NCBI GenBank assembly: GCA_021787985.1
Contig: JAJYLG010000001.1
Coordinates: 50,163 to 114,162, forward strand
From: Chloroflexota bacterium
GTDB taxonomy: Bacteria; Chloroflexota; Dehalococcoidia; DSGV01
Direction: 5' to 3'
Length of the DNA: 64,000 nucleotides
Under the pieces are notes generated by a model. That model saw only the letters and a list, made by a program, of their open reading frames with translations. It had not been told where the DNA came from and searched no databases. Shown in pieces: positions 4,329-32,718 of this stretch (positions within the stretch are counted from its first letter, which is position 1; the number at the start of each line of letters is the position of its first letter). A program made the position numbers and the translations under genes.

Positions 4329-4516
4329 GTCACTCGCTCTCCTTCTGCACCCGCGGCCCGCTCGCTCTGGCCGCGCGTTGTCGGGCGCGACCGGCTGCAC
4401 GAGCGTCCTCCTGCAGCCGGTCGCGCCGCCTGCGGTTCCGGCTCGGGCTCCCGCCCGCCGAAGTCCCCTCCCTCACCGTCCGTGGGGACCAGACAGGCAA
4501 TGTTCCGCCCGCCGCG

Positions 4517-5737: not shown

Positions 5738-6003
5738 GGTTTCCTCCCTTTTCCGTTCGTCCTTCGACCTCGCTCGATAGTTGCCAGGGTTCGCATTCGG
5801 CGGTTGGTGCGCCGGTCCAGCGCCCGTCCAGGCACGGCGCTCCCGCCCGAGCTGCCTCGGCGGAGGCGCGTGCGCGCGGCACCCCCGCCCGCCTCGCAGG
5901 GGGTTGTCCTGCGGCGAGCTGACGATGGTCGCTTGGTCCCGGCGGACCTCCTTTCCGGCGGCGGCCGCCACGGCAGTTCCTCTTCCCGGTTGCTCCAGGT
6001 CAT

Positions 6004-7486: not shown

Positions 7487-7495
7487 CCGGCCTTC

Positions 7496-9424: not shown

Positions 9425-9470
9425 TGTCCCCCCACCCGTCCCTCGGATCCGCGTAAGGATGGCGTTTCCG

Positions 9471-10643: not shown

Positions 10644-10788
10644 GATCACTCCCTTGCCAGTGTTGGGATGCCCGCTCGCGCCTGGTCAGGCGAGATGCCG
10701 GGCCGGATGCGGCCGCACCTGGCGGAGAGACGCGACAGCCGGGCAACATCCGCGCGCAGCCTGGCTGCAGCCGTTGCCGGCGCCTGAG

Positions 10789-11520: not shown

Positions 11521-11526
11521 GGCGGG

Positions 11527-11555
11527 ATTATCGACTATCGGTCATACTGGGTCAA
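11527..11555 (-). promoter_or_regulatory. Sigma-70-like promoter (TTGACC-N17-GATAAT) carrying the conserved 14-mer CGATAGTCGATAAT, directly upstream of the GntR start
   Basis: In gene orientation the -35 TTGACC is at 11550-11555 and the -10 GATAAT at 11527-11532. The predicted TSS falls at the A of the GntR ATG. The same 14-mer and ~50 nt of flanking similarity recur at 15661-15700. Confidence 0.55.
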
Positions 11556-11685
11556 GACGGCCGCCGCTCCCCCCGCCGGGCCCGCGCCGCCCCACTCGTC
11601 CGCGGGCTCGCTGCGCCTGGGATGCCGCTCGCCGGTTGCGTCGGGGCCCGCCAACCGCCCCGTCACCGAAGGGAGTGCTCGTTCG

Positions 11686-12831: not shown

Positions 12832-12860
12832 GCCTCGCGCTCGTGGGGCTGACGTCAGGT

Positions 12861-14096: not shown

Positions 14097-14097
14097 C

Positions 14098-15357
14098 TCA
14101 GACCACCCCCAGGGCGAACAGCAGCTCGAGCTCTTGCGAGCTCAAGCCGAGCTCATCCACGAGCACGGCACGGTTGTGCTGCCCGAGTCGGGGTGCCGGA
14201 CCTCGGACGACCCAGGGTGCGCCCGTGGTATGAACCGGCACCCCGGGATACCGCAGCACGATCGCTCGTGCCGTGTCCGCGACCTCTCGCCAGGAAGCGC
14301 GCGCCGCAAGCTGGGGGTCGGCGAGCACGTCCGCCAGCGTGTTGACCGGGCTGAACATGTGTCCGTCGCGGACGGCTGCTTCCAGGAGCTCCGCCTTCGT
14401 CTTGGTGCGCAGGAAAGCGGTGAAGGGCTCGAGGAACCGGTCGACCTCATCGGGGGGTAGGCCCGCGGGATCGAAGGTGGCCCAGTCGGTCTGCTTGAGC
14501 CATTCCGGTGCCGCGCCTTCGGAATCCATCCACTCCATGAGCTTGCGGGCGGTCCGTGCGCCGCCGTAGAAGGTCATGAACATCCAGACCACCCAGCCAT
14601 CCTTGCATTGATAGAGGGTGCGCGAGCGGCGTCCGGGGCCGAGGTCGCGCCACATTCCTTGTCGCTGGAGATTGACGCCGCTGAGATCGGCGAACGCGTA
14701 GGTGTGCGTCAGCATGGACAGCGGCACCTCCTGCGCCGCCACGTCGACGTGTTCGCCGTGGCCGGTTGCGAGGCGGCGAAAGTGGGCCGCGAGGGCGCCG
14801 ACCACGCCGGCCATCGCCAGGTGCAGGCTTGCCTGCGGCGGGAGCCCCACCCGCAGCGGCGCCCGGTCGGGATCCCCGACCATGTGCATGTACCCGCCGA
14901 GCGCCCAGGTGAGCAGGTCGTCCCCCGCGTACGAGCGATACGGCCCTTCCTGCCCGTACGGCGTGAGCGACACCAGGACGACGCGTTCGTTCTGCGCCCT
15001 CAAGTCTTCGTAGGCGAGTCCGCGCGCCGCCAGATAGCCGGGCGGAAACCCTTCGACGACGAAATCCGCCCCCGAGACGAGCTTCCGGAACAGCGCCTGG
15101 CCGTCGCGAGTGTCGAGGTTTAGCGTGACGCTCTGCTTGCCGGCGCCGTATCCCAACCAGAACAGCCCGCGCTCGAGGCCCGGCTCGCCGTCGGCGAACG
15201 GGCCGAGGCGGCGAGCCGGGCTGCCCCCCGGCGGCTCAACCGCGATGACCCGCGCCCCCAGGTCGGCGAAAGTGCGGCCGAAGAGCGCCGTCTCCGTCGT
15301 CGCCAGCTCCAGCACGACATAGGGCGCGAGCAGGTCCTCGTGTGTCTCGTTGGCCAT
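14098..15357 (-). CDS. Family III CoA-transferase, paralog 4
   Basis: Starts at the ATG at 15355-15357 (MANETHEDLLAPYVVLELATTETALFGRTFADLGARVIAVEPP...) with a GGAGGA RBS 13 nt upstream. The in-frame upstream extension to 15660/15708 is low-complexity. Confidence 0.75.
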   Translation of the reverse strand: MANETHEDLLAPYVVLELATTETALFGRTFADLGARVIAVEPPGGSPARRLGPFADGEPGLERGLFWLGYGAGKQSVTLNLDTRDGQALFRKLVSGADFVVEGFPPGYLAARGLAYEDLRAQNERVVLVSLTPYGQEGPYRSYAGDDLLTWALGGYMHMVGDPDRAPLRVGLPPQASLHLAMAGVVGALAAHFRRLATGHGEHVDVAAQEVPLSMLTHTYAFADLSGVNLQRQGMWRDLGPGRRSRTLYQCKDGWVVWMFMTFYGGARTARKLMEWMDSEGAAPEWLKQTDWATFDPAGLPPDEVDRFLEPFTAFLRTKTKAELLEAAVRDGHMFSPVNTLADVLADPQLAARASWREVADTARAIVLRYPGVPVHTTGAPWVVRGPAPRLGQHNRAVLVDELGLSSQELELLFALGVV

Positions 15358-15660
15358 TTCGCTGCTCGTTTCCTCCAAGCCTGCCTCCTCGGCGAACGAT
15401 GAGGTCGGATTGTCCACGGGGGCTCCCTGCTCGCCTCGGTGGCCCGTAACTTCCCTCGCCGCCGGCAGCAGGGGCCGACGCGCGGCGGCGCAGGAGGGAG
15501 CGTGGACGGGCCTTGCCGATGCTTCGCCGGCGCGGCGAGCCGCGGTCGCAGGCGAGGCCGGCAGTTCCTCCGCAAGCAGCCCATGCTGCCGAACGAGGGT
15601 GGGCCAGCGGCGGAAGGAGCGCGGCTGGCGCGGGCAACAGAGAGCGGCCCACCGGGCCAT

Positions 15661-15689
15661 ATTATCGACTATCGACCAAAATGGATCAA
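15661..15689 (-). promoter_or_regulatory. Second copy of the promoter/operator element (TTGATC-N17-GATAAT with CGATAGTCGATAAT)
   Basis: This is the same architecture as the 11527-11555 element. It lies ~300 nt upstream of the CoA-transferase 3/4 gene pair. Confidence 0.5.
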
Positions 15690-15770
15690 CGCCGCCCCCG
15701 CTCCCCACGCTTCACTGCGCCCGCCACCTCGCACTCGGCGGCTTCCGATGATTCGGGCAGGCATCCGCGC

Positions 15771-17336
15771 TCACGTGAGGCCGGCCGGCCCCACACGCAC
15801 TCGCACGCGCGCATATCCTGTGGCGCCGTTCGGCAACGGCTCGCTCTCGGTGGCCGTCTGCGCCCTTCCGCCACCGTCTGCGGCCCGCGCGACGATCTCG
15901 AGGACCTGCGGGGCCTGACTCGCCCTTACGTCCCACTCGTAGGACCACAGCACCCACGCGGCGGGACCAAGAGGCGGAACCAGCCTCGCCTCGCGCCAGG
16001 TCTGGCCACCGTCGGTGGAAAGCTCCACCCGGCTGATGCCTCGGTCGCCCGCGAAAGCTACGCCCTGTACACGCACGGTGCCCTCGCCCAGCTCCACGCC
16101 GTCGGCGGGGACGTCGATGCGGCAGAAGGTGTGCACGTGGGCCTCCTGGCTCCAGCCGCGCTGCTCCCAGTAGCCGAAGTACTCCTTTTCAGTGAACAGG
16201 ATCTGGGTGATCCACTTGGGGTTCTTCATGCCGTAGCGGCCGGGCACGAGCAGGCGCAGAGGAAAGCCATGTTCCACCGGCAGGGTCTCGCCGTTCATGC
16301 GATACGCCAGCATGACATCGTCGCGGAGCGCTACCTCCAACGGCAGGCTGTCAGAGTAGCCGTCCTGGGAACGAAAGACGACCGACCGCGCGGGCGGCAA
16401 CGGCTGAAGCTCGCCGAGCAACGGAGCCAGCGGCAGGCCCGTCCATGCGGCGTTACTGATGAGGCCGCCCTGCAGTCGGTTGCTGATGCATTCAAGGGTC
16501 AGAAACACGGTCTTTGATGGTCGTGCCAGGATGTCATCGTAGGTGAGAACAAGCGTCCGCCCGGAGCTGCCATCCACCCGCAGGCGCCAGGTATCCGGGT
16601 CGACCCGAGGCGGGGAGAAGTCCTTTGATACAACATAGAACTGCGCGGTCGGCGTGACCGCGGGCGTCGGCCTCCCGGCCCGTGTGGCGCGGGTTGCTCG
16701 CACGAAAAGATCCAGCACCTGCTTGCCGGTGAAACCCAGCGCCAGCACGCCCAGCACCCAGGCAACGGAGGTGGTCACGAACTGACGGCGGGTAGCGCCG
16801 GCTTGGGCCGCGGGGCCATCCCTCAGGACTCGCGCGGGGCCGGCCGGCACGCCACGAACCGCCGTCGTCACGGCGGCGAACGTCAAAGACGCGAGCAGGG
16901 ACACCAGAGCGTATCCCTGCCATTGCTTCTCAGCGGTGATCCGGCCCGGGTAGAGCGCGCCGGGAAGCAGCCCCAGCACGATGAGGAGAAACGACGGCAA
17001 GGCCGCGCGGAGCAGGAAGGCCTGCAGGGCTTCGCCGAGTCGCCCGCCGGACCGCCGAATCCAGCGGCGGAGCACATCGCCGTCCATGAGCATCGAGATG
17101 ACGGCGTAGAGCGCTATCTGTGCGACGACAACGCCGGCGAAGACCAGCGGCTTGGCGTAGCCTTCCAGACGCGTCAGGAGGAAAGCGAAGGCGCCGAACC
17201 CCAGCGAGAAGGGGGCGGAATCGACCGCCACGTCTGCCAGCACGGGTGTGCCATACGCCCGGCGGAAGACAAGCGAGACGGCAACCGCCGCGAAAGCGCC
17301 GGGCAGCGACCGGCAGAGGGACCCGCGGGCGCTCAA
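15771..17336 (-). CDS. Molybdopterin-dependent oxidoreductase of the sulfite oxidase/MsrP (YedY) family, with an N-terminal membrane domain
   Basis: A hydrophobic N-terminal ~200 aa is followed by ...LTLECISNRLQGGLISNAAWTGLPL... and ...HGFPLRLLVPGRYGMKNPKWITQI..., the Moco-binding and dimerisation motifs. The start codon (TTG in the ORF track) is uncertain. Confidence 0.65.
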   Translation of the reverse strand: MSARGSLCRSLPGAFAAVAVSLVFRRAYGTPVLADVAVDSAPFSLGFGAFAFLLTRLEGYAKPLVFAGVVVAQIALYAVISMLMDGDVLRRWIRRSGGRLGEALQAFLLRAALPSFLLIVLGLLPGALYPGRITAEKQWQGYALVSLLASLTFAAVTTAVRGVPAGPARVLRDGPAAQAGATRRQFVTTSVAWVLGVLALGFTGKQVLDLFVRATRATRAGRPTPAVTPTAQFYVVSKDFSPPRVDPDTWRLRVDGSSGRTLVLTYDDILARPSKTVFLTLECISNRLQGGLISNAAWTGLPLAPLLGELQPLPPARSVVFRSQDGYSDSLPLEVALRDDVMLAYRMNGETLPVEHGFPLRLLVPGRYGMKNPKWITQILFTEKEYFGYWEQRGWSQEAHVHTFCRIDVPADGVELGEGTVRVQGVAFAGDRGISRVELSTDGGQTWREARLVPPLGPAAWVLWSYEWDVRASQAPQVLEIVARAADGGGRAQTATESEPLPNGATGYARVRVRVGPAGLT

Positions 17337-17733
17337 CTGGCGACCGCGGCCCTACGTTCGCCTGCGGTGATTGCGGGACATCGGAACGCCCTCCCCCCGG
17401 TCGTCGTCGCGTCGACGGTGCTCACCCGTGCTCCGAGATGATTATGACAATGGCCACGGCGCGTAGTCAATCGCGGTGGCCGTCCGATCAATGTGACATG
17501 CCGGCCAGGCCTGCCAAGCAACGGTTCGTGCGCACCGCGTTGCACCACGGCGCGATCGCGCCAAGTGAGGCCCGACACATGCCGTCCCTGGAATTCGCGC
17601 CCGGTGTTGGCGATGACATACGTTGCGCCAGAGTGCTATGCTTTCTCCGACGCCGCTCGATGGCCGCAAGATTGAGATCGTACCGATCGGCGGATTCTCA
17701 CCGGATCACGCGCGTTGGAGCGAGGACACATTA

Positions 17734-18660
17734 ATGGTTCGAGACATCGTCATTGTCGGAGCAGGGGTCGCCGGTCTGAGCGCCGGGTTGATCGCAGCGC
17801 AGAGCGGGTTTGACACGGTGGTGGTTGATCCGCTGGGCGGCGGCGGCCAATTGGTCAACATCGACCGAGTGCTGAACTACCCGGGGCTCGATGAGATCCA
17901 CGGCTTCGATCTGGGTCCCCGGATCGCCACCCAGGCGATGGACCAGGGAGTGTCGTTTGTCCTCGGAACCGTCGACGGTCTGCGAGCGGAGGCCGACGAG
18001 CTCGACGTCGTCCTGGACTCGGGCGACGTGATCACGGGGAAGTCCGTCATCCTGGCGATGGGTTCCAGCATCCGCCGAGCCGGGATTGAAAACGAAGAGG
18101 CGTTCGAGGGACGGGGCATCTCGTACTGTGGCGTGTGCGATGGTCCGTTCTTTGCCGGGCGCGAGATCGCCGTCGTCGGCGGTGGGGACTCGGCCGCCGA
18201 CGAAGCGCTGTACCTGGCGACCCTCGCCAAGCGCGTGCACCTTGTCTTCCCGGCCGGCGAGATGCACGCCATGGCTGCGGCCCAGAAGCGGCTCCGCGAG
18301 CTGAATAATGTTGTGTTGATGCCAAACTACAGAGTGGCCCAAGCGGCCGGCGACGGCAGCGGCTTGAAGCGACTCCAGTTGGTGGACGTCCGCGACAGCT
18401 CCACCGCCGACCTCGAGGTGGAAGGAGCATTCTTGTACACCGGGCTGGCTTCCAGCACGGCGTTTCTGAAGGGGTTGATGGAGCTCGATGAGGGCGGGCA
18501 CGTGGTCACCGATGCCTGTCTGCGGACGAACGTGCCCGGAATCTTCGCCGCGGGCGACATCCGCCAGTTCTCGGTGAAGCTGCTCGCGGCCGCGGCCGGG
18601 GACGGCGCCAGCGCGGCGGTCTGGGCCGGCCGCTACCTGCGCGGGCAGCGCAGTTCGTAG
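17734..18660 (+). CDS. FAD/NAD(P)-dependent pyridine nucleotide-disulfide oxidoreductase, thioredoxin-reductase-like
   Basis: Begins MVRDIVIVGAGVAGLSAG and has a redox-active CGVC plus a second GGGDSA dinucleotide motif. A GAGGA RBS lies 8 nt upstream of the ATG at 17734. Confidence 0.8.
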   Translation: MVRDIVIVGAGVAGLSAGLIAAQSGFDTVVVDPLGGGGQLVNIDRVLNYPGLDEIHGFDLGPRIATQAMDQGVSFVLGTVDGLRAEADELDVVLDSGDVITGKSVILAMGSSIRRAGIENEEAFEGRGISYCGVCDGPFFAGREIAVVGGGDSAADEALYLATLAKRVHLVFPAGEMHAMAAAQKRLRELNNVVLMPNYRVAQAAGDGSGLKRLQLVDVRDSSTADLEVEGAFLYTGLASSTAFLKGLMELDEGGHVVTDACLRTNVPGIFAAGDIRQFSVKLLAAAAGDGASAAVWAGRYLRGQRSS

Positions 18661-18715: not shown

Positions 18716-19342
18716 CTACGTTGCCAGCAGCCAGTCGACGACGCGCCGGTACTGCGCAAGCGGCACCTCGCCGACAACGCGAACGGCGCCGGCCGCGTCG
18801 GCGAGCAGCACCGTCGGCACCGCGGTGATGCCGCGTGTCTGAGCCTCGATGAAGTCGGCGAGCACCGCTGCCCGCTGTGTGCCCTCGTCGAGGTCGCGCT
18901 GGAAGCCCGCCACGTCCAGCCCCGCGCTGTCGGCCACCTGGATGAGCACGTCTCGCTGTGAGATGTCCCGGTTGAGCTCGAAGTAGGCGCGCAGCAGCGC
19001 CTCGTGGTAGCGAGCGAATGCTTCTGCACCCTGCCGCTCGGCGCACTTTCCGGCCTCCAGGGCCGGCAGGCTGTGTGAGGGCATGTCGCGGTCGTCGGGC
19101 CACGGGTGGAAGGTGACGCCATCCGGCGCGCCCATCTCTGCGGCCATTCGCCAGGACTCGCGCGTGTGGTCGTCGGGGCGACGGCCCTCGGCCTCAGGCT
19201 CAGGTCGCAGCGGGTAGGCTTTCCACGTGACGTTCACGCTTCCCGCGTACGTGTGCGTGATCTTGCGCAGACGAACCGCCGCGTTGTAGCACCACGGTCA
19301 GAGGTAATCCGAGTACGCGGTGACGATGACTGGCCCAGCCAT
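18716..19342 (-). CDS. DsbA/FrnE-like thiol-disulfide oxidoreductase with in-frame TGA (predicted selenocysteine, UPWC motif)
   Basis: Translation from ATG 19340-19342 reads MAGPVIVTAYSDYL-TGA(19298-19300)-PWCYNAAVRLRKI.... The TGA sits where DsbA/FrnE proteins have the first Cys of CPWC. The downstream ORF 18716..19237 is in the same frame and continues a DsbA fold (...GITAVPTVLL...). A GAGG RBS is present. A hairpin lies 14 nt after the TGA. Confidence 0.7.
19266..19283 (-). other. SECIS-like stem-loop downstream of the DsbA-like TGA
   Basis: The mRNA forms CGCGG-CGGUUCGU-CUGCG (5 bp stem including a G-U pair, loop with GGUU), starting 14 nt after the UGA. Confidence 0.35.
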
Positions 19343-22711: not shown

Positions 22712-23590
22712 CTATCCACGTCCCGCTCCGCCGTCCGGCGGCGACGCCAGTCCGAGCAACTGGCGCGGATTGTCGCGCGCCATGCGGCCGAGGTCGCCCT
22801 CGGAGAGGCCACCATGGAGGAGCTGCGCGATGAACGTGCGGAAGCCCTCCGGCGGCGACGGATTGATCGCCTGCCCCAGGTCCGTTGAGAGGACGCACTG
22901 GTCCGCGCCTACCGCGCGGATGGCCGTCGCCAGCGACTCCACCGTGTGCGTGCCGACGTGATAGGTGCACACCACGTACGCGTGCTCGATGAAAGCCCCG
23001 CGCCGAGCGAGCTCTTGCTGCCAATCGATCGGGATCCACATGTCGGCGTGCGTCACCACCGTGGGGATCCCGCGACGGCACGACTCGCCGACCAGCGCGT
23101 CCTGCTCCTCCACGGAGAGGTGACCCGTTCCCAGGACGAGGCTCCGGTGCTGAATGATGTCGAGGATGTCGAGAACGGCCGGGCGGAGCTTCCCGGTCTC
23201 ATTCAGTACGGTGATTCCCGGGCGACCGTAGCGTTCCCGACTCCAGTGGTCGGCCGTGAACGTCGGCATCCACACCTTTCGGGCGCCGACACCGGCGGCG
23301 ACCTCGACCGCCCGCGGATTGAGGCCGCCAACTGACTCGTTGAGCGTCACGCTGCCGAACACCTCAATCCCGGGGACCATGCGGTTCACGACGTACGCCA
23401 CCGGCGACGTGGGGTACTCGTGGCTCTTGAAGATGAAGCCGCCCATCCCCAGGTCGCGCGCGGCCGACGCCAGGTCGACGATGTCGTGCCTCCGCGGGGA
23501 ACCCGCATCCGGTGCCGCGTGCACATGGATATCGATCGCGCCTCTCAGGATGGCGTCAACCGTGGCGGTGAACTCTCCGTCCGCAACCAC
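22712..23590 (-). CDS. Amidohydrolase-2-type TIM-barrel metal-dependent hydrolase
   Basis: ...AIDIHVHAAPD... gives the HxH metal ligands, and ...GTGHLSVEE... and ...VVTHADMW... follow. At 292 aa it is typical of PF04909-like hydrolases. Confidence 0.6.
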   Translation of the reverse strand: MVADGEFTATVDAILRGAIDIHVHAAPDAGSPRRHDIVDLASAARDLGMGGFIFKSHEYPTSPVAYVVNRMVPGIEVFGSVTLNESVGGLNPRAVEVAAGVGARKVWMPTFTADHWSRERYGRPGITVLNETGKLRPAVLDILDIIQHRSLVLGTGHLSVEEQDALVGESCRRGIPTVVTHADMWIPIDWQQELARRGAFIEHAYVVCTYHVGTHTVESLATAIRAVGADQCVLSTDLGQAINPSPPEGFRTFIAQLLHGGLSEGDLGRMARDNPRQLLGLASPPDGGAGRG

Positions 23591-23599
23591 ATTCCGCTC

Positions 23600-24688
23600 C
23601 TACTCGCGCAAGTCCGCGACGCGCGCGACCGGCGTTCCGTCCCGTCGGCACAGCGCCCGCGTCACCGGACGCGTCTGGTCCCCGAACGTGGGTTGCCAGC
23701 TACTGTGCTTGCCGGCGCCTCCTACCACGATGACGGAGATCGCCTCCGGCGCATCTGCGATGGGCACCATCGTGTCATCTCGGTCTGGGAGCCCATTGCG
23801 GTGCGCCAGGAAGGCCCGGTACTCGGGGCCGAGGCGTCCCAACGGGAACCGTGCCTGCTCGAACAGGAACTGCTTCACCGTGCGCTTCGAGAACCCGTCC
23901 CGGGCAAGCGTGGCGGCGTGCTCTGGCCCCAGGCTCAGCAGCGGCCAGCCACGGCCGAGGAGATTGTTGCTTCCGGCCTCGCCCATGGCGCCCGCGATCA
24001 GGTGGAGGATGCCGATCCCGGTGGTGCTGTAATGGTCCTGAATGTTGTGCGGGCCCTCGCAGCCGAAGACGGTCACCGTGCTGGTGTCTGGCGCGAACCC
24101 GCGCTCGACGTGCAGCGGCTCCCAGGGATTTTGCTCTTCGTTTTCGGCCACGCAGTAGGCGATCTTTGCCGGGTTCCCTTGAGTGGCGCGATCGCCGCGA
24201 CCGGGCAGCCCTCCGCCGATGTTCATCAGGATGAGGCGCATGGCTCTGCCGATCGTTGCGTTCGCGCGAAAGCCCTGGCCGAACGCGTTGTAACCGGCAT
24301 TGATGCTGAGCTCGCGCGCGACTGGCCCGTTGACGACGACCAATGGCGCGACCGGGTGGGTTGTCGCCTGGATCGAGTCGATGTTGAACGCCGGGTCGGC
24401 GATCGCCTCCACTGCCGCGATCACGACCGGTAGGAATTCCGGCCGGCAGCCCGCCATGGCCGCGTTGATCGCGATCCTTTCCACCGTGGCCTCGCCCTGC
24501 CTCGGAGGCAGCACCGCGACGACCTCCTGGCGATCCCGGTCTGTCCAGCCGAGGAGCTCCTCGACGAGGTCCTCGGTGGGCGGCACGATCGGCAGGCCGT
24601 CGGTCCAGCCGCGTTCTTGGTAGAGCTCGTTGATCGCTCGATACGAGTCCTCGACGCGCAGCGTCCGGGCCGCCGCTCCGTCAGCCAC
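23600..24688 (-). CDS. Uncharacterised conserved protein, UGSC-associated partner A (paralog of 31116..32156)
   Basis: It shares N-terminal ...GWTDGLPIVPPTE... and a central ...GQGFRANATIGRAMRLILMNIGGGLPG... block with the paralog. The GTG start (second GTG, 24686-24688) lies 6 nt after a GGGAGGGA RBS and overlaps the UGSC-A stop by 8 nt. Confidence 0.65.
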   Translation of the reverse strand: MADGAAARTLRVEDSYRAINELYQERGWTDGLPIVPPTEDLVEELLGWTDRDRQEVVAVLPPRQGEATVERIAINAAMAGCRPEFLPVVIAAVEAIADPAFNIDSIQATTHPVAPLVVVNGPVARELSINAGYNAFGQGFRANATIGRAMRLILMNIGGGLPGRGDRATQGNPAKIAYCVAENEEQNPWEPLHVERGFAPDTSTVTVFGCEGPHNIQDHYSTTGIGILHLIAGAMGEAGSNNLLGRGWPLLSLGPEHAATLARDGFSKRTVKQFLFEQARFPLGRLGPEYRAFLAHRNGLPDRDDTMVPIADAPEAISVIVVGGAGKHSSWQPTFGDQTRPVTRALCRRDGTPVARVADLRE

Positions 24689-25256
24689 GCTCACTCCCTC
24701 CCTGAACGCCCGGAGCTGGCAGCGGCACGGCGGCGCTCACCGCTGTTGCCACCGCATCGGCGAGGTCCTTCGCCTTCGCCACCACCTCCTCCTCGGGGAT
24801 GCCCCCCAGCGGGTGCTGCGTGAGCGCGATCGGAAGCTCGGGCAGGCCGCGGTTCCGCGCCTCGAGCCGTGCGAGGGCCTGGAACTCGTCCGTACCGACC
24901 ACTACGGTAGGAACTCCCTGCTTCTCGAGCAGGATGGCGCCGTGGATACTCCACGACGTGCACGACCCTCAGTCCGCGCTGCCCACGATGACGAAGTCGC
25001 ACGTCATCAGGTCAGCCAGCACGTCCGGGGGAGGCGGTCCGGCGATGGGCTTCTCCCGCTTCAACACTTCGCGTATGCCGTGAAGCTCCTGCAGCCGCTT
25101 GGCGACCGACAGCATGAGGATGTCCGCGTTCGGCTTGCCGTTGTCCAGGATCCCGACGCGCGCGCCGGCGAGGCTGTCCAGTCGCGGCGCCAGCCTGACG
25201 GAGGCCACCTTGGGTTCGGCCGTCGGGTCATAAACTCTCGTCCAACGCTCGGTCAT
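24681..25256 (-). CDS. UGSC-motif small selenoprotein A (in-frame TGA at 24969-24971)
   Basis: Starts at ATG 25254-25256 with an AAGGGAG RBS. The ORFs 24969..25295 and 24681..24902 are in one frame and joined by a TGA: ...DFVIVGSAD-U-GSCTSWSIHGAILLEKQGVPTVVVGTDEF.... The paralog 32176..32718 has a TGA at the same aligned position. Confidence 0.7.
24939..24957 (-). other. SECIS-like stem-loop downstream of the UGSC-A TGA
   Basis: The mRNA forms GUCGUGG-AGUAU-CCACGGC (7 bp stem, 5-nt loop with GU), starting 11 nt after the UGA. Confidence 0.45.
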
Positions 25257-25366: not shown

Positions 25367-26848
25367 TTACTGGCCCTTCCAGGGGCAGGTGTCCGCGGCA
25401 CACGGATAGCCAGGAATGTTGCCGCGGATGCCGTGACCCTTGCTGGTCTCCATGTCGATCGGCGTCATCCCAGGGACCGGGACGAACCCCTTCGCGCTGG
25501 AATCCCAGTGCACCATCTGCACGGTCTCGATCGCCCAGTGGTCCTGGGCGCCGAACACGATTGGGCCGACGCAGAGGCTGCACTTCCAGCTTGACTGCAC
25601 GCTGAAGCCGGTTTGCATCGCATCGACCAGACCTTGCCGGGTCAGGTCCGGGCCGGCCAGCTCGAGGGAGTGGACCAGCATCTGCGTCCAGGCGATCCCG
25701 TCGAGGACGTAGGTGTTGAAGGCCAGCCCGTTCTGCTGCGCCCACGTCTTCGCCGCGGCCACCGCGGCCTCGTCCAGTTGATGGGTGGTGTAGATCCCGA
25801 GGTCAGCGGTCACGTTGTTGAAGTTCTGCGTTCCCGCGGCGACCGCGTTGCTGCTGCTCGCGCTCGACTGAGCGATCACCACCGGGCCGGTGTAGCCGGC
25901 CGTCTCGCGCAGGGCTTTGATGAACGGCACGATCGCGGTGCCCAGGAACGCCACGTAGTCCGGATGGGTGCTCGCGGCCTCCTGGGCTTGCGAGCTCAGG
26001 TCCGACGCGTTGGCGATGTTGTAGGTGATCGTCTTCGCGATCGTTGCGCTGGAGCTCGCCTGCGCCAATCCGACTTTGAAGCCCGCGAGCAGCGGCTGGC
26101 CGTAGGCGTCGTCCTGATAGACGACCGACACCTTCCCGCCGGGCTTCTGCTTGCCGACGTACGTGCCCAGCGCCAGCCCGTCTTCGAGCGCGGCCTGGCC
26201 GCCGCCGAACATCGTGGTGATCGTCGGCTCGGCCACCCAGGGCCCGTTCGCGAACAGGAAGATGTCGGGCACGCCCTTCGAGGCGTAGTACTTGTAGGTC
26301 GCCAGCTCACAGGCGACGCACAGGTTGCCGAACGTGGCGAACACTTTGTCCTGCTCCACGAGCTGCTTGGCGACGTCCGTGCCCCGCGCCGGAGTCCCGG
26401 CATTGTCCAGGTCGATCAGCTTGATCTTCCGGCCGAAGACGCCGCCGGCCTGGTTGACCGCGTCCACCACCTTCTGCATGGTCTGGGCGGTCGGGAGCCA
26501 CTGCGCCATGCCGCCGGTGTGGGGCGAGGAACGGCCGATTACGATGGTGTCCTTCGTTACGCCCGTGCGGTCGTCGCCTGCCGGCCGCGTCTTCGAGAGG
26601 GCAATGCAGTCGTTGATGGTGAACAGTCCGGCGACGCTCCGCGGGTCGCTTGCGATACCGGCCGGGCCGCATTTCCCGTTCCACGTGACGCCCGACGACG
26701 CCGTCGCCGTGTTGGAGGCGGCAGTGCCGGTGCTCCCCGGCTGAGTCGCCTTGGACGACTTGCTGCTGCACGCGGCCAGCGCCATGGCGACGACGGCCAC
26801 CAGCACCAACACGGTCAGCCGGACTCTCGACCTGGTGTAATCTCTCAT
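25367..26848 (-). CDS. ABC transporter substrate-binding lipoprotein (Liv-type periplasmic binding protein family)
   Basis: It has a signal peptide with a lipobox (...VLVLVAVVAMALAACSSKSS) and a type I PBP fold. Confidence 0.8.
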   Translation of the reverse strand: MRDYTRSRVRLTVLVLVAVVAMALAACSSKSSKATQPGSTGTAASNTATASSGVTWNGKCGPAGIASDPRSVAGLFTINDCIALSKTRPAGDDRTGVTKDTIVIGRSSPHTGGMAQWLPTAQTMQKVVDAVNQAGGVFGRKIKLIDLDNAGTPARGTDVAKQLVEQDKVFATFGNLCVACELATYKYYASKGVPDIFLFANGPWVAEPTITTMFGGGQAALEDGLALGTYVGKQKPGGKVSVVYQDDAYGQPLLAGFKVGLAQASSSATIAKTITYNIANASDLSSQAQEAASTHPDYVAFLGTAIVPFIKALRETAGYTGPVVIAQSSASSSNAVAAGTQNFNNVTADLGIYTTHQLDEAAVAAAKTWAQQNGLAFNTYVLDGIAWTQMLVHSLELAGPDLTRQGLVDAMQTGFSVQSSWKCSLCVGPIVFGAQDHWAIETVQMVHWDSSAKGFVPVPGMTPIDMETSKGHGIRGNIPGYPCAADTCPWKGQ

Positions 26849-26939
26849 CCTTTCCTCCCTGCACGAACTCCGAAGCGATGGTCATCGCTAATGACTTCAC
26901 GCGCTTCGCTACGGTGCCTGTTTGTCTGTTCGCACTCCT

Positions 26940-28442
26940 TCATCCGCTGCTTACCCGTTCTCTTTCCCGTGAGACCCCCCGCGTCTGTTCGTCCGCTCCG
27001 ACTCCTCCAGGAACGATCCGCCCGTGCAGCCACTCGCCTACCTCGGCCCAGGAAAGTGCATCGAGGTCGCGAGTGAAGCCGGCGAGACCGCCCGGCATCG
27101 CCAGCACCACGAGCAAGACCGCCGCGCCCGCGAAGGCGGGCTGCAGCGCCACGACGTTGAGAAACGTCGAGGTGATGAAGCGCAGCCCCGCGAGCACGCC
27201 GACGGCGATGACCGCGGCCACCACCACAGCTCCGGTCACGAGACCGGCACGGGTCACGGGGCTGGCAGGCCTCGCCATGAAAGAGCGCGTAGTACGCGGC
27301 AGCACCGACCTCCGCGAGAACCAGAGCAAGACGAGGACCGTGATCAGCGCCACGACCAGCACATCCGCCCAGTTTCGCGAGCCGCTCTGAAACGCGCTGG
27401 AGAAGGCCTGTACGCCTTGTTGGTAGATGTAGACGAGAAAGAAGCCGCCCAGGATGGACCCGAGGATCGACGCCCTGCCGCCGATCACCATCGCCAGCAG
27501 GAACTCGATCGACTGGGTAAGCGTGAACCCGTCCGGCGCCACGCTGCGGTTGTTCAACAGGAACCACAGCCCGCCGGCCACGCCGGCGAGCGCCGCGCTG
27601 ACCACGAAGGCCGAGATCTTGACCAGCGCGATGTCGACGCCCATCGCCGTTGCGGCGTTCTCGTCGTCGCGCGTGGCGGTCAGAGCGCGCCCCGCCGCCG
27701 AACGGACGAGATTGCTGACCAGCCAGATCGCCACCAGCAGCACCAGCAGCCCAACGAAGTAGTGCCACCGCTCCGAGGTCAGCCAGTGCCACGAAACCGG
27801 CGGGCCGAATGCGCGGCTGAACTCGCTCAGCCCGTTGAAGCTGCCGGTGTACTTCTCGAGCTCGTGCACCTGCAGGACCTCCGGGAAGGCGACCGTGATC
27901 GCCAGCGTGACCAGGCCGAGGTAGTGGCCACGCAAGCGGAGGGCGGGCACCCCGATCAGCAGGCCGACAGCGGCGGTAGCGGCCGCGCCGATGGCGACCG
28001 CCAGCACGATGCTGAGGTGCCCCTGTCCCGTGGCGATCGCCGCCGCGTACGCCCCGATCCCCAGCAGCGCCGCGTGACCGATCGAGATCTGGCCGGTGTA
28101 GCCCGTCACCAGGTTGAGGCTGAGGACGATGAGCGACACGACCAGCGCGCGGTCCATCAGGCTGACCGCGAAGGTGCTCTTGGCAACTCCAGGTAGGACC
28201 ACCGCGAACAGCGCCGCGCCGATCGCCCATCCGAGACGTGCGGAGGAAACCCCGCGGCCCGCCTGCGCTCCGCGCCGAGTCCGACGCCACGAGGCGAGCA
28301 TCACCGCGGCGCCGACGGCGCCGACCGCAAGCCCCGCGCGCGGGCCGGCCACGTAGACCGCGAACCACAGCCCCACGATGAGCGCCAGGAGCTCGACCGG
28401 CGTCGGTATGACGGACGCCGTGGCCCAGGCGGCCCGTTTCAT
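26940..28442 (-). CDS. ABC permease, LivM-like
   Basis: It is polytopic, with a LivM-type core ...GYTGQISIGHAALLGIGAYAAAIATG.... The stop overlaps the upstream LivH-like gene start by 4 nt. Confidence 0.8.
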   Translation of the reverse strand: MKRAAWATASVIPTPVELLALIVGLWFAVYVAGPRAGLAVGAVGAAVMLASWRRTRRGAQAGRGVSSARLGWAIGAALFAVVLPGVAKSTFAVSLMDRALVVSLIVLSLNLVTGYTGQISIGHAALLGIGAYAAAIATGQGHLSIVLAVAIGAAATAAVGLLIGVPALRLRGHYLGLVTLAITVAFPEVLQVHELEKYTGSFNGLSEFSRAFGPPVSWHWLTSERWHYFVGLLVLLVAIWLVSNLVRSAAGRALTATRDDENAATAMGVDIALVKISAFVVSAALAGVAGGLWFLLNNRSVAPDGFTLTQSIEFLLAMVIGGRASILGSILGGFFLVYIYQQGVQAFSSAFQSGSRNWADVLVVALITVLVLLWFSRRSVLPRTTRSFMARPASPVTRAGLVTGAVVVAAVIAVGVLAGLRFITSTFLNVVALQPAFAGAAVLLVVLAMPGGLAGFTRDLDALSWAEVGEWLHGRIVPGGVGADEQTRGVSRERERVSSG

Positions 28443-29359
28443 AGCTTGACCACCCGTTTCCGGCCGAATAGTCCCTGGGGCCGGACGATAAGCAGCACCA
28501 CGATGACCACCAGCGCGATCAGGTCACGGTACTGCTGCGGCTGGGCGATGTTGAACGGGAGGTGCAGCCATCGCACCACGTTGCCGAGGTAGACTCCGGT
28601 CAAGCTCTGCAGCACGCCGAGAAGAACGCCACCGACCAGTGTGCCGACCATGCTGTCCAGCCCGCCCACGACCGCCGCGGCGAACGCGAACACCAGGACG
28701 ACGTCCATCATGTTGGGCGTCAGGCTCAGCAACTGCGCCAGAAGCATCCCGGCGACGCCCGCGCACGCGATCCCCAGACCCCAGGCGAGCATCATCATGC
28801 GGTCCGTTGGAACGCCGGCCAGCTCGGCGGCCGTGCGGTTTGCCGCCGTGGCTCGCAGCACCAGACCAAGGCGGGTGTGCCGGAAGAGAAGGTACAGGGC
28901 GAGGACGAGCGCCAGCGAAACGCCGAAGAGGTACAGCGACGCTCGCCCGATGTGCACACCATGCAGGTCGATCGGCGGCCCCGCGAACGGCTGCGGAAAC
29001 GGATGAGGCTGACCACCGTAGATGCCAACGGTCAGCCCGTAGAACACGAACAGCAGTCCCAGCGTGACGATCAGCGGATTGAGCCCGGTGCGCTCCTTCT
29101 CCGGGACCATTCGGATCACCAGGCGCTCCACCAGCGCACCCACCACGAAGGCGACGATCGTGCCGAGCAGGAAGCCGGCCGGGTAGGGCAGCCGGAGCAA
29201 CAACGACCAGGCGATGAACGTCACGAACGTGCCCATCGCTGCCTGTCCGAAGTTGATGATCTCCGTCGCCTGGGCGATGACGACCAGTCCAAGCCCCACG
29301 ACCGCGTAGACGCTGCCTGTCAGTGCACCCGTGATCGTCTGCTGGAGGAGCTGGGTCAT
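28439..29359 (-). CDS. ABC permease, LivH-like
   Basis: Contains MTQLLQQTITGALTGSVYAVVGLGLVVI... and ...INFGQAAMGTFVTFIA.... Four-nt overlaps on both sides. Confidence 0.85.
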   Translation of the reverse strand: MTQLLQQTITGALTGSVYAVVGLGLVVIAQATEIINFGQAAMGTFVTFIAWSLLLRLPYPAGFLLGTIVAFVVGALVERLVIRMVPEKERTGLNPLIVTLGLLFVFYGLTVGIYGGQPHPFPQPFAGPPIDLHGVHIGRASLYLFGVSLALVLALYLLFRHTRLGLVLRATAANRTAAELAGVPTDRMMMLAWGLGIACAGVAGMLLAQLLSLTPNMMDVVLVFAFAAAVVGGLDSMVGTLVGGVLLGVLQSLTGVYLGNVVRWLHLPFNIAQPQQYRDLIALVVIVVLLIVRPQGLFGRKRVVKL

Positions 29360-30168
29360 GTGGAAGCGGCCCCCTGCCCGAGATAGCTTCGTCGTACTTG
29401 TTCGCTGCCGCGCAGCTCCGCCGCCGAGCCGACGGACATGACCGTCCCGGTCTCGATGACGTATCCCAAGTCGGCGATACTCAGGGCGATCCCCACGTTC
29501 GGCTCCGCCATGAGCACCGCGACGCCTTGCTCGCGGTTGATGCGCGTGATGATCCGATAGATGTCCCGGACCACAAGCGGCGCCAGGCCCAGCGATGGCT
29601 CGTCCAGCAGCAGCAGCCGAGGACTGGCCATCAGCGCGCGAGCGATCACCAGCATCTGCTGTTCGCCGCCCGACAGCGTGGCCGCGCGCTGCCTGCTGCG
29701 CTCTTTCAGGATCGGGAAATACTCGAACGCCCGCTCCAGCGCGGTGGCGATCGCGGACCGGCCTCGCGTGGAGTACGCGCCGACCATGAGGTTCTCTTCA
29801 ACCGTTAAGTCCGCGAACAGCGGTCGTCGCTCGGGCACATGGACGAGACCGCGGTGCACCAGTGAGCTCGGCCGCTGTCCCACGATCGACTCGTCCTCGA
29901 ATTCGATCGACCCGGCGTCTGGTCGTGCCAGGCCCGAGATGGCGCGCAGCAGCGTGGACTTGCCGGCCCCGTTTGCGCCCAGCAGGGCCACCACGCCATG
30001 GCGCTTCACTTCGAGGTTGACGCCGTGCAGGACCCGGAGCTTGCCGTACGAGACCCACAGGTCGCGCACCCGCAGCATGGGATGCGCGCCATCTGCCGAC
30101 GCGGTCGCCCGGTCCTCCCCGCGTGAGCAAACACTCGTACCGGCTTCTCCGCCGGCCTTCTCACTCAT
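29356..30168 (-). CDS. ABC ATP-binding protein, LivF-like
   Basis: Has GANGAGKST and LSGGEQQML. The ATG at 30166-30168 overlaps the upstream stop (ATGA). A shorter start at 30078 (MLRVRDLWVSYG) is possible. The ORF-track start at 30297 is an artefact. Confidence 0.75.
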   Translation of the reverse strand: MSEKAGGEAGTSVCSRGEDRATASADGAHPMLRVRDLWVSYGKLRVLHGVNLEVKRHGVVALLGANGAGKSTLLRAISGLARPDAGSIEFEDESIVGQRPSSLVHRGLVHVPERRPLFADLTVEENLMVGAYSTRGRSAIATALERAFEYFPILKERSRQRAATLSGGEQQMLVIARALMASPRLLLLDEPSLGLAPLVVRDIYRIITRINREQGVAVLMAEPNVGIALSIADLGYVIETGTVMSVGSAAELRGSEQVRRSYLGQGAAST

Positions 30169-30965
30169 CAGCCGCCCGATACCGCCGTTTCTGCCACCGA
30201 GTCGAGCTCGCCGAGGTATGCCAGCACCACCGCGGGATCGCGCTGGACCGCGTCCGGCGGGCCATCCGCGATCTTCTGCCCGAAGTTGAGCACGCATACC
30301 CTGCTCGAGATGCTCATGACGAGACCCATGTGATGTTCGACGAGCACGATGGTGACGCCGGCCTCGCGCCTCACGCCGAGGATGACGTCCGCCAGCTCCG
30401 CCACCTCCTCGTGGTTCAAGCCGGCTGCCGGCTCATCGAGCAGCAGCAGCTTGGGAGCCGACATGAGCGCGCGCGCCAGCTCGACGCGCTTGCCCGTCTG
30501 CACGGAAACCTCGCTTGCCTTGCGATAGGCGACAGCGGCCAGCCCGAGCTGCTCGATCAGCTCGCCCGCCCGACGGCGAAGCGCCTGCTCGGATGCCCGC
30601 AGCCGCGCCCACGGAACCATCGAGACGAAGGGGTTGGTCACGGCTCCGGAATGGCCGCCGACGAGGATGTTCTCCAGCACCGACATCGACGGGAAGAGCG
30701 CCACATTCTGGATGGTGCGGGCAATGCCCAGGGCCGCAACCTGCTTCGGCCGAACCGGCCGCAGATCCTTCCCGTCGAACTGTATGGCTCCCGCATCCCA
30801 GTCGTAGAACCGCGAGACGCAGTTGAGCAGCGTGGTCTTGCCGGCCCCGTTCGGGCCGACCACCGCGCAGATCTCTCCGGCCGCGACGTCCAGACTCACG
30901 TCCTGGAGCGCCTGCACACCGCCGAAGCTCAGCGACACGCCACGCACCGAGAGCACCGAGGTCAT
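30168..30965 (-). CDS. ABC ATP-binding protein, LivG-like
   Basis: Contains MTSVLSVRGVSLSFGGVQAL... then GPNGAGKTT... then LLLLDEPAAGLN. Confidence 0.85.
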   Translation of the reverse strand: MTSVLSVRGVSLSFGGVQALQDVSLDVAAGEICAVVGPNGAGKTTLLNCVSRFYDWDAGAIQFDGKDLRPVRPKQVAALGIARTIQNVALFPSMSVLENILVGGHSGAVTNPFVSMVPWARLRASEQALRRRAGELIEQLGLAAVAYRKASEVSVQTGKRVELARALMSAPKLLLLDEPAAGLNHEEVAELADVILGVRREAGVTIVLVEHHMGLVMSISSRVCVLNFGQKIADGPPDAVQRDPAVVLAYLGELDSVAETAVSGG

Positions 30966-31115: not shown

Positions 31116-32156
31116 TCACGGCGCCACCGCCAGGTCACGCACGACGGCCGAGGTCATTTGTGTGTCTCCAAAGTTCGAGCAGACCGTGACGTGATACGGC
31201 TCGTCCCCGCCCGCCACGACCAGCACGATGTCTTCCGGCTGGGCGGCGACGGCATGCTCTTCCGAGATGGCGCGGCGCTCGGGGCGGCCGCCCAGGGCCT
31301 GGATCTCGTCCGGGAAGCGCGACCGCGGCACCTTCGCGTGCTCGTACAGCCATTCCTTGGTGCGCTGCTTGTCGTAGCCCTGGCTCTGGAGCAGATTGGC
31401 GTGGCCGTAGCTCATGATCACCAGCGGATTCCCGTGCTGGAACTCGACGTTGTTGGCGCCCACCTGCCCGAGCGTGTCCGCCACCGCCAGCAGCACGCTC
31501 TCCGCCTTCTTGTAGATGGCGAGGACGTTGGCCGTCCCGATCGCCCCGACGCAGGTAACGACACTCTCGTTCGCAGCGAAACCTCGTTCGACGTGCAGCG
31601 GGGGCCACGGGCTGCGCTCCTCGTCCTCGCCGAAGCAGAACGTGTACTTCCCCGGCATCCCGTGCAGCGCCTGGTCCACGGTGCCGGGAGCGGCGCCACC
31701 GATGTGCAGCATGCAGAGGCGGACCGCCCGCCCGATCGTGGCGTTCGCGCGCCAGCCGGGGCCGAGCAGCCCGCGCTGGCAGTTGATGCCGATCGTGCGT
31801 CGTATCGGCCCGTTGACGATGATGGCGGGTCCAACGGGATTGGTCGTGGTCTGGATGCCGTGGAGGTTGAAATCGGGGATCGCCAGCGCCTCGACCGCGG
31901 CGATAACCGTCGACATGTACTCCGGCAGGCAGCCCGCCATCACCGCGTTGGCCGCGATCGTCTCGATGGTGGCCGCGCCCCCCGCCGGGTCGAGGTAGGC
32001 GATGAGCTCGTCCGGCGGGCGTGCGGTCGCCGCCACCATGGCCGCGACCCGCTCCTCCGTCGGGGGTATCAGGGGCAGTCCGTCTCCCCAGCCCTGGGCC
32101 TGGGCGTAGTCCAACCACCCATCGAGTGAGTCCGGGACCTCTCGAACGGTAGCCAC
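31116..32156 (-). CDS. Uncharacterised conserved protein, UGSC-associated partner B (paralog of 23600..24688)
   Basis: Contains ...GWGDGLPLIPPTEE... and ...GPGWRANATIGRAVRLCMLHIGGAAPG.... It has a GTG start 20 nt after the UGSC-B stop. Confidence 0.65.
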   Translation of the reverse strand: MATVREVPDSLDGWLDYAQAQGWGDGLPLIPPTEERVAAMVAATARPPDELIAYLDPAGGAATIETIAANAVMAGCLPEYMSTVIAAVEALAIPDFNLHGIQTTTNPVGPAIIVNGPIRRTIGINCQRGLLGPGWRANATIGRAVRLCMLHIGGAAPGTVDQALHGMPGKYTFCFGEDEERSPWPPLHVERGFAANESVVTCVGAIGTANVLAIYKKAESVLLAVADTLGQVGANNVEFQHGNPLVIMSYGHANLLQSQGYDKQRTKEWLYEHAKVPRSRFPDEIQALGGRPERRAISEEHAVAAQPEDIVLVVAGGDEPYHVTVCSNFGDTQMTSAVVRDLAVAP

Positions 32157-32175: not shown

Positions 32176-32718
32176 TTACGCTTCCAGCGGGCGCGGCGCC
32201 GCCACTTTGGCGACCACGTCGTCGATCGCGTTCCTGATCACGCCGCGCGAGCTCTCGGTGTCGCCGAACTCGGTTACCTCGGTTGGCGGAAGCACCACCA
32301 TCGGGGAGCTGCTCGCCCCCTTACCCTTGAACGTGACCGTGGCGAGGTTGACGAACCGCTCGGTCACCAGTACCACGGACGGGATGCCCCGTCGAATCAG
32401 CTCGATCGTGTCGTGGACACTCCACGCGGTGCAGGACCCTCAGTTGGCGAGCCCCACGATGGCGATGTCGGCGTTCTCCGTCGCCTGTTGGAGCACGGCC
32501 TCCGACGCGGCGGCGGCGATGGGCACCTCGAACTCGAGGACCTGCGCGACGCCGAACTCATTGACCAGCGTGCCGCGCATCTCGTCGACCAGCTTGTTCA
32601 TGCTCTGCCAGCCGTTGTTGAGAAAGACGACGGACTTGCCCCGCAGGTCTTGCGGGGCGAACTCCGCGGTCACTCGGGTCGCACGAAACGCACCAGCCGT
32701 CGGTTCTACGATCCGCAT
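32176..32718 (-). CDS. UGSC-motif small selenoprotein B (in-frame TGA at ~32440-32442)
   Basis: Starts at ATG 32716-32718 with a GGGAGAAACAC RBS. ORFs 32440..32718 and 32176..32376 are in the same frame: ...DIAIVGLAN-U-GSCTAWSVHDTIELIRRGIPSVVLVTERF.... This is the same architecture as UGSC-A. Confidence 0.7.
32411..32425 (-). other. SECIS-like stem-loop downstream of the UGSC-B TGA
   Basis: The mRNA forms CGUGG-AGUGU-CCACG, 14 nt after the UGA. It is near-identical in shape to the UGSC-A hairpin (loop AGUGU versus AGUAU). Confidence 0.4.

Follow-up and report, generated by a model that had tools for sequence, protein, structure and literature searches.

A large uncharacterised protein family paired with UGSC selenoproteins and its probable role in one selenium-dependent enzyme

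Selenoproteins containing the UGSC motif have been catalogued since the mid-2000s, and they were still described as functionally uncharacterised in later reviews, among them one from 2026 (PMC13188914). In a stretch of 64,000 nucleotides from a Chloroflexota bacterium (GenBank assembly GCA_021787985.1, contig JAJYLG010000001.1, positions 50,163 to 114,162 of the forward strand; hereafter the window), each of two UGSC genes is followed by a gene of a second, larger protein family, which we call the partner. The locus thus raises the question of what the partner is and what it does beside a selenoprotein. Our results indicated that the partner and UGSC are almost certainly two parts of one functional unit. 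Because the partner nearly always lies beside UGSC or is fused to it, the two probably form one selenium-dependent enzyme. The four genes, in window coordinates and with the selenocysteine (Sec) codons, are as follows.

23600..24688, minus strand: partner copy A, 362 amino acids (aa) from GTG 24688; the alternative start GTG 24694 gives 364 aa.
24681..25256, minus strand: UGSC-A, likely start ATG 25254..25256, Sec codon TGA 24969..24971, stop TGA 24681..24683.
31116..32156, minus strand: partner copy B, 346 aa, GTG start.
32176..32718, minus strand: UGSC-B, start ATG 32716..32718, Sec codon TGA 32440..32442, stop TAA 32176..32178.

Both upstream genes matched the UGSC family PF24696 (E 2.4e-50 for UGSC-A and 5.5e-33 for UGSC-B). 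Against the NF041046 model, which has a cut-off of 125 bits, UGSC-A scored 136 and UGSC-B 87, the one above and the other below it. Each gene carries an in-frame TGA at the U position, in the contexts ..SAD-U-GSC.. (UGSC-A) and ..LAN-U-GSC.. (UGSC-B). The likely ATG start of UGSC-A sits 7 nt after AAGGGAG, and the mechanical open reading frame (ORF) begins at GTG 25295. About 15 nt past the UGA, both genes can form a hairpin, CGUGGAG-(UAU/UGU)-CCACG (24920..24972 and 32390..32442, minus strand), whose position and form are compatible with a bacterial selenocysteine insertion sequence (SECIS) element. These hairpins are no evidence by themselves, because their folding shows no energetic advantage over shuffled sequence (z = -0.8 and +1.0) and they are located in conserved coding sequence.

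The longest mechanical ORF of copy A in the ORF listing was 23600..24694, with a GTG start. We preferred GTG 24688, since a Shine-Dalgarno sequence (GGAGGGAG) ends 7 nt 5' of this codon and the resulting product is 100% identical to a public protein of 362 aa (P0001). With this start, copy A overlaps the UGSC-A stop by 8 nt, and copy B starts 20 nt past the UGSC-B stop, after a spacer of 19 nt. These are the distances given in the initial annotation of this DNA, which had read the window from its letters and ORF translations, and the tight translational coupling that it proposed was right for both copies. The two motifs that it had quoted were also found in both paralogs, one near the N-terminus (GWTDGLPIVPPTE in one copy and GWGDGLPLIPPTE in the other) and one in the centre (GQGFRANATIGRAMRLILMNIGGGLPG and GPGWRANATIGRAVRLCMLHIGGAAPG). 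Copies A and B aligned end to end with 42% identity over 346 residues (E 2e-85); in the comparison of the two pairs, the partners were 41% identical and UGSC-A and UGSC-B 33%. Both copies are real genes rather than chance ORFs, since the databases contain thousands of relatives of each; among the matches listed, the best apart from the protein itself had E-values of 1e-187 (copy A) and 6e-155 (copy B). The deposited protein for copy B (P0121) has 307 aa and is probably too short, because it begins about 39 codons late, past the conserved N-terminal motif GWGDGLPLIPPTE (GWGDGLP), which it drops.

To establish how far the pairing extends beyond the window, we used two samples. In the first, anchored on the partner, the best 80 genome loci and one further contig gave 81 reference-genome loci with 91 partner copies, and a UGSC profile was searched in six-frame translations in which TGA was read as a residue. 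A UGSC on the same strand was found within 1.3 kb of 85 of the 91 copies (63 upstream and 22 downstream); the codon for U was TGA in 74 cases and TGC in 3. The six copies without UGSC comprised two cut by the edge of a contig or locus, one tandem second partner, one partial gene and two apparent true orphans. In the second sample, metagenome loci were anchored on UGSC by the Cys-codon pattern DCGSCT, and the partner was adjacent on the same strand in 74 of 80; the other 6 lose one flank to the contig end. The same arrangement was also seen in an unrelated 3.4-Mb genome. The strict pairing that had been proposed from the two copies in the window therefore holds well outside it, and it extends to fusion, since 31 of 105 UGSC-then-partner pairs (~30%) form a single ORF with no intervening stop. 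For the separate pairs in this order, a possible start codon lay no more than 30 nt from the UGSC stop in 61 of 74, a count biased towards coupling because the start nearest the UGSC stop was taken.

Fusions were also abundant in protein databases. Full-length UGSC-partner proteins of 529-581 aa made up more than 25 clusters, and further proteins of ~410-470 aa start just past the Sec codon. Fusions in the opposite order, ending at the Sec codon, are present as well (P0245, for example), as are tandem double partners of ~700 aa. Among the domains fused to UGSC, we found none other than the partner family. In Neobacillus bataviensis LMG 21833 (L042, 3350..5005) and Robertmurraya sp. 2P01SA (L034, about 3400..5017), UGSC and partner lie in one frame with the Sec TGA inside; judged from the reading frame, these Bacillaceae genes would each encode a selenoprotein of ~550 aa, which ORF callers break into two pieces. 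A mirror-tree comparison of pairwise identities of the partner and UGSC over 134 pairs gave r = 0.77, against a maximum of 0.11 over 200 pairing shuffles. The two are therefore passed on and duplicated as a unit. In addition, a structural model of one fusion, built on a 27-sequence alignment, reached a predicted template modelling score (pTM) of 0.86 despite a disordered linker, which we take as an indication of a defined domain interface.

The order of the two genes on their common strand varies, with UGSC first or the partner first. Partner-first loci mostly have U-G-S-C-T-A-C-S as their Sec motif, in which an additional Cys takes the place of the Trp seen in the UGSC-first order (U-G-S-C-T-S-W-S); loci L037, L040, L043, L045, L051, L056, L061 and L067 are examples. 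This difference in motif, linked as it is to gene order, suggests two ancient subtypes of the UGSC-partner module.

We then asked whether the partner belongs to any described family. Searches of Pfam-A 2025 and NCBIfam 20.0 returned no family at E <= 1 for either copy, and PADLOC 2.0 returned no model at E <= 0.1. Forty-nine diverse members were compared with Pfam, and no match beyond two isolated ones at chance level was found. Neither PF24696 nor NF041046 matched the partner proteins, only the genes upstream of them; by its sequence, the partner is a family separate from UGSC that occurs fused to it. Against PDB sequences, nothing meaningful was found with single partner sequences or with a profile of the 49-member family, nor with a single sequence or profile of UGSC.

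An AlphaFold2 model of copy A, based on the 49-sequence alignment, was obtained with a mean predicted local distance difference test score (pLDDT) of 92.1 and a pTM of 0.92. The best Foldseek match in the PDB was the alpha subunit of two-subunit class I fumarate hydratase (E 8e-4, template modelling (TM) score 0.26-0.30), and partial matches just as good were obtained with unrelated domains of the alpha+beta type, among them capsid proteins and the C-terminal domain of FtsZ. From these Foldseek results we concluded that the modelled fold has no close solved relative. For class I fumarate hydratase alpha and the 'Toblerone-fold' cyclic amide hydrolases taken together, TM scores were 0.19-0.30 over fewer than 140 aligned residues, and neither the three Fe-S Cys ligands of fumarate hydratase nor the Ser-Lys dyads in the three Toblerone repeats have a counterpart among the conserved residues of the partner. 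By this measure, we could not place the partner among the hydro-lyases. The UGSC domain is small and flavodoxin-like, and we found in it no thioredoxin fold around UxxC of the kind assumed in the 2008 paper discussed below (PMC2398784). A candidate P-loop in the partner, the C-terminal VVGGAGKHS, was rejected because its spacing is not that of Walker A and copy B lacks the Lys. The initial annotation could place the partner in no family from sequence, and this stood against Pfam-A, NCBIfam, PADLOC, PDB sequences and PDB folds; no assignment emerged to a known family that is not linked to UGSC.

The partner may nevertheless have been seen before. In its passages on UGSC, the study of Zhang and Gladyshev (PLoS Genet 2008, PMC2398784) describes 'Unknown_1', a conserved domain of unknown function that is fused to UGSC in ocean metagenome reads (Fig. 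S1A) and also occurs as a separate protein in a few aquatic organisms. The partner family is probably this domain, because the only domains found fused to UGSC are those of the partner family. Those passages contain no gene pairing, family size, conserved residues, fold or reductase fusions; the Global Ocean Sampling (GOS) table of the paper lists PrdB with a UxxC motif. We found no description of obligate pairing, family extent, conserved residues, fold or reductase fusions in the UGSC selenoprotein literature searched. We accordingly rated the partner as lying outside every known family, as probably glimpsed before and as likely to have chemistry of a familiar kind.

The family is very large. 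At least ~8,000 clusters at 90% identity were retrieved per paralog, all of them unnamed or called "hypothetical protein" and none with a precomputed Pfam domain. An exhaustive profile search of 1.84 billion representatives recovered 7,070 partner clusters (50% identity) at a threshold of E <= 1e-3, of which 2,132 reached E <= 1e-30. A scan of one genome per GTDB species gave at least 599 confirmed partner matches. The hosts, chiefly aerobic heterotrophs of soil, groundwater and the sea, belong to many bacterial phyla and some archaea. They include Methylomirabilota, Chloroflexota/Dehalococcoidia, Beta-, Alpha-, Gamma- and Deltaproteobacteria, Binatia, Acidobacteriota, Actinomycetota, Entotheonella, Bacillaceae (Neobacillus bataviensis and Robertmurraya) and the haloarchaeon Natrialba asiatica. 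Many genomes have several pairs, and one Chloroflexi metagenome-assembled genome (MAG) supplied three of the loci and at least 6 partner copies. A locus labelled Candidatus Nitrosocosmicus sp. (L064) carries a Sec (TGA) UGSC whose motif, GSAD-U-GSCTSWS, is identical to that of UGSC-A and of several Rokubacteria/Methylomirabilota loci; this contig may have been mis-binned into the archaeal MAG.

To reveal the residues on which the partner might depend, we examined conservation in 162 partner sequences made non-redundant at 60%, using the numbering of the 362-aa copy A. The following positions stood out.

Asp30, in the motif GWxDGLP (GWTDGLP in copy A): 98% conserved.
Asn75, in the motif NAxMAGC: 91% conserved.
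Gly80, in the motif NAxMAGC: 100% conserved.
Cys81, in the motif NAxMAGC (NAAMAGC in copy A): 96% conserved.
Asn143, in the motif RANATIGRA: 97% conserved.
Arg148, in the motif RANATIGRA: 99% conserved.
Glu182: 100% conserved.
Trp189: 97% conserved.

The RANATIGRA motif lies at the start of a helix, after a glycine-rich loop. Cys81 was absent in just 2 of ~165 paired copies. Cys179 is less than 90% conserved, and A, V, L, T or G stands in its place in ~12 of ~165. In UGSC, Sec or Cys is nearly constant at the first motif position, and Sec-x-x-Cys is the commonest form. We also considered whether Cys losses are complementary, with pairs that lack the second UGSC Cys always keeping Cys179 and vice versa; this pattern was suggestive but not significant, because only about one double loss is expected by chance.

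A source of electrons is suggested by several loci. In one partner subfamily (P0319), the C-terminus continues into a low-Mr thioredoxin-reductase-like (TrxR-like) domain that bears a CAVC motif; the start of this protein abuts the stop of a preceding Sec-UGSC gene. TrxR-like genes also lie directly upstream of UGSC in L020, L075 and L011, and two of these loci have the order TrxR-like gene, UGSC, DUF6282, partner. In this respect, the loci (P0319, L020, L075 and L011) resemble AhpF-AhpC and NTRC-type pairs of thioredoxin reductase and thioredoxin, in which a TrxR-like CxxC module is fused or adjacent to its electron acceptor. They differ in that the UGSC-partner acceptor has neither a thioredoxin fold nor a peroxiredoxin fold, and in that the link is found in few lineages.

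DUF6282, an amidohydrolase-like family that we did not find mentioned in the literature searched, occurs near the module in eight loci besides the window (L016, L020, L011, L029, L034, L086, L095 and L113), where it lies between UGSC and partner, right after the partner, or farther downstream on the same strand (L034). It is an optional third member of the module, and DUF6282 and TrxR-like genes are subtype-specific additions. The commonest neighbours, each in no more than ~10% of 163 loci, were Amidohydro_2, TctC, luciferase-like monooxygenase, acyl-CoA dehydrogenase, CoA-transferase III, short-chain dehydrogenase/reductase (SDR), NHL-repeat protein, DUF6282, enoyl-CoA hydratase and MmgE/PrpD genes. 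At least one catabolic enzyme gene (CoA-transferase III, acyl-CoA dehydrogenase, enoyl-CoA hydratase, Amidohydro_2/DUF6282, luciferase-like monooxygenase, MmgE/PrpD or SDR) was present in 60 of 91 loci of at least 6 kb. In Bacillaceae, the fusion is flanked either by AtuA/cyclase and CoA-transferase/SDR genes or by enoyl-CoA hydratase/MmgE-PrpD genes and a tripartite ATP-independent periplasmic (TRAP) transporter followed by DUF6282.

Under the reading that we favour, which we hold tentatively and at slightly less than an even chance, UGSC and partner are a two-subunit Sec/Cys-dependent redox enzyme, and the partner is the substrate-specific catalytic subunit for an anionic small molecule. Thiol/selenol redox chemistry is suggested by the dominance of Sec-x-x-Cys and the recurrent fusion or adjacency of TrxR-like proteins, and the role of the partner by its polar, glycine-rich pocket, its near-universal Cys and the expansion of paralogs in catabolic islands. 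The partner would be the obligate second subunit, or the second domain of one polypeptide, of a cytoplasmic enzyme in which UGSC serves as a flavodoxin-like domain with a redox-active Sec-x-x-Cys at a helix N-terminus. It would supply a pocket for an anionic compound (a carboxylate or CoA-ester), formed by the glycine-rich loop and helix GxGxRANATIGRA (Asn143, Arg148) together with Asp30, Asn75 and Glu182, and Cys81 would work with the selenol, for example through an inter-subunit selenenylsulfide. A thioredoxin-reductase-type flavoprotein would then re-reduce the oxidised Se-S or S-S form with NAD(P)H, and the enzyme would act in the catabolism of organic acids and CoA-esters. The presence of multiple paralogs in one genome, next to catabolic genes that vary, suggests that the small-molecule substrate differs from pair to pair.

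Several observations weigh against this redox reading. The resolving Cys of UGSC is lost in 15 of 27 full-length Cys-form fusions (C-G-x-S/L), and four Sec forms (U..S) have no second Cys. A few diverged pairs (S..S, G..P) have neither Sec nor Cys in UGSC and retain Cys81. Given these losses of the second Cys and these Sec/Cys-free pairs, the role of Cys81 may be independent of UGSC redox chemistry. TrxR-like genes were found in a small minority, 3 of 161 loci plus two fusion contigs, and this scarcity of nearby reductases, together with the same losses and Sec/Cys-free pairs, counts against a simple U-x-x-C cycle. For two or three partner genes (L026, L065 and the partial L063), both flanks are visible and neither shows a UGSC gene in the vicinity. 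Finally, no third gene was conserved in more than ~10% of the 163 loci, so the argument from genomic context is diffuse.

Part of this evidence fits a non-redox enzyme, which we consider unlikely but which survives better than the other alternatives. UGSC and partner would form an isomerase, racemase, lyase or hydrolase acting on an unsaturated or alpha-substituted carboxylate or CoA ester, with the UGSC selenolate and Cys81 serving as the nucleophile or as an acid/base pair. A mechanism of this kind is used by cysteine-dependent maleate isomerase and by the two-Cys racemases. A resolving Cys that is dispensable in many members, the near-universality of Cys81, Glu182, Arg148 and Asp30, the plentiful MmgE/PrpD, enoyl-CoA hydratase and CoA-transferase genes among the neighbours, and the lack of a reductase gene near most loci would all be expected. 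However, the commonest form of the motif, Sec-x-x-Cys, is the classic redox motif. Several lineages also have a TrxR-like domain joined to the partner or encoded immediately upstream of UGSC, an arrangement that would be difficult to account for if no electrons were transferred.

The fusion in P0319 bears on a further alternative, which we regard as quite unlikely, in that its TrxR-like domain is joined to the partner and not to UGSC. Here UGSC would be the real enzyme, a peroxidase or oxidant reductase, and the partner would be only a recycling, scaffolding or maturation protein that passes electrons through its own Cys, much as the N-terminal domain of AhpF passes electrons to AhpC through its cysteines. 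Cys81 and Cys179, both present in most members, could form a relay disulfide, but Cys179 falls below 90% conservation, with the replacements given above. The partner is also twice the size of UGSC and has a deeply conserved polar, glycine-rich pocket motif, and the multiplication of its paralogs together with UGSC points more to substrate specificity than to a generic recycling factor. In addition, Cys-form UGSC genes retain the partner, which argues that it is not a Sec-specific maturation factor.

The complete conservation of Gly80 next to a Cys81 conserved at 96% recalls the subunits of D-proline and glycine reductase. In an analogue of protein B of these enzymes, self-cleavage of a partner proenzyme at Gly80-Cys81 would yield an N-terminal pyruvoyl group to bind an amine substrate, after which a C-N or C-X bond would be broken reductively by the UGSC selenol. 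The logic of the parts is like that of PrdB with PrdA and GrdB with GrdE, and amino-acid-type ABC transporters and amidohydrolases often adjoin the module. We nevertheless judge this scheme very unlikely, since neither GRDB nor any other Pfam family matched the partner by sequence and no PrdA- or GrdE-like chain was among the structural matches of the partner in the PDB. Self-processing sites usually lie in a strand-loop setting, whereas the modelled Cys81 lies at a helix end between two helices, and the hosts are mostly aerobes and not Stickland fermenters. Least probable of all, and scarcely credible on the present evidence, is the idea that the partner is a metal- or Fe-S-dependent hydro-lyase, a remote relative of class I fumarate hydratase or cysteine desulfidase, which UGSC would activate or repair: the dicarboxylate-type catabolic context fits it, but Fe-S hydro-lyases use three Cys ligands and the partner has one near-universal Cys only, the second often being lost, and the partial fold matches to capsid proteins and the FtsZ C-terminal domain are equally good.

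The closest functional analogy is with the Stickland complexes of the selenoprotein B type. In PrdB with PrdA and GrdB with GrdE, as here, a U-x-x-C selenoprotein works with a larger separate subunit. In the Stickland reductases, the larger subunit bears an essential Cys-derived group, electrons come from thiol or thioredoxin-type donors, and paralogous sets exist for different substrates. Membership in this group is not supported by sequence or fold: no similarity of either kind to the Stickland reductases was detected for the UGSC partner in Pfam and the PDB, UGSC is small and flavodoxin-like, and the hosts of UGSC-partner pairs are mainly aerobic heterotrophs.

The remaining genes of the window agree with a catabolic setting in part. 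Its G+C content is ~69%, and the closest relatives of its genes, among the matches listed, are labelled Candidatus Rokubacteria or Methylomirabilota. The minus-strand array runs in the order UGSC-B, partner B, a five-gene Liv-type ATP-binding cassette (ABC) transporter, UGSC-A, partner A and DUF6282, followed by a dehydrogenase-like NAD-binding/DUF1932 protein and a CDC48-like AAA ATPase. Positions 1..16000 are rich in catabolic genes. The features are listed below.

475..2058, 3111..4400, 12861..14096 and 14098..15708: four CoA-transferase family III genes.
1893..3083, 9471..10649 (both by Pfam) and 11428..12831 (read from the sequence only): acyl-CoA dehydrogenases, at least three.
4517..9724: second Liv-type ABC transporter.
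10789..11520: GntR/FCD regulator.
15771..17336: sulfite-oxidase-like molybdoenzyme.
17623..18660, plus strand: TrxR-like gene with Pyr_redox_2 and a CGVC motif, ~5 kb from copy A.
18716..19342, minus strand: DsbA-like gene, third candidate selenoprotein gene, TGA 19298..19300.
22712..23590, minus strand: DUF6282 gene (amidohydrolase-like; PF19799, E 1.1e-59), beginning 9 nt past the copy A stop.
25367..30965, minus strand: Liv-type ABC transporter between both pairs, five genes on the same strand as the pairs.
25367..26848, minus strand: Liv-type substrate-binding protein.
26940..28442 and 28439..29359, minus strand: Liv-type permeases.
29356..30297 and 30168..30965, minus strand: Liv-type ATPases.

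The transporter at 25367..30965 is context and no part of a conserved module. The TrxR-like gene at 17623..18660 is a candidate electron donor, and its link to the pairs is weak within the window. Convergent with it is the DsbA-like gene. When its TGA is read through, this gene encodes MAGPVIVTAYSDYL-U-PWC-YNAAVRL, with a UxxC motif. The ORF past the TGA matches Pfam DSBA solely from profile position 31 on, as expected if the active-site segment lies 5' of the TGA.

These findings shift the question from a small orphan selenoprotein to the function of a two-part enzyme, and they draw attention to a very large family (7,070 clusters at 50% identity) that has neither a curated model nor a known fold. 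They also point to systematic mis-annotation, because gene callers cut the fused selenoproteins at TGA, and copy B is truncated in this genome. The natural Cys-form fusions can be expressed without Sec machinery, the natural TrxR-like fusion names a likely electron donor, and cultured hosts (Neobacillus bataviensis, Robertmurraya and Natrialba asiatica) and candidate catalytic residues are at hand. It is possible, if doubtful, that UGSC and partner represent a new class of selenium-dependent reductase, an analogue of glycine and proline reductase with unrelated folds, in which paralogous pairs reduce different imported organic acids or amino-acid derivatives. If this were true, the class would be widespread in aerobic heterotrophs of soil, groundwater and the sea (Methylomirabilota/Rokubacteria, SAR202-type Chloroflexota, Betaproteobacteria, Binatia, some Bacillaceae and haloarchaea), and among the orphan selenoprotein families of aquatic metagenomes, one of the most abundant would gain a function.

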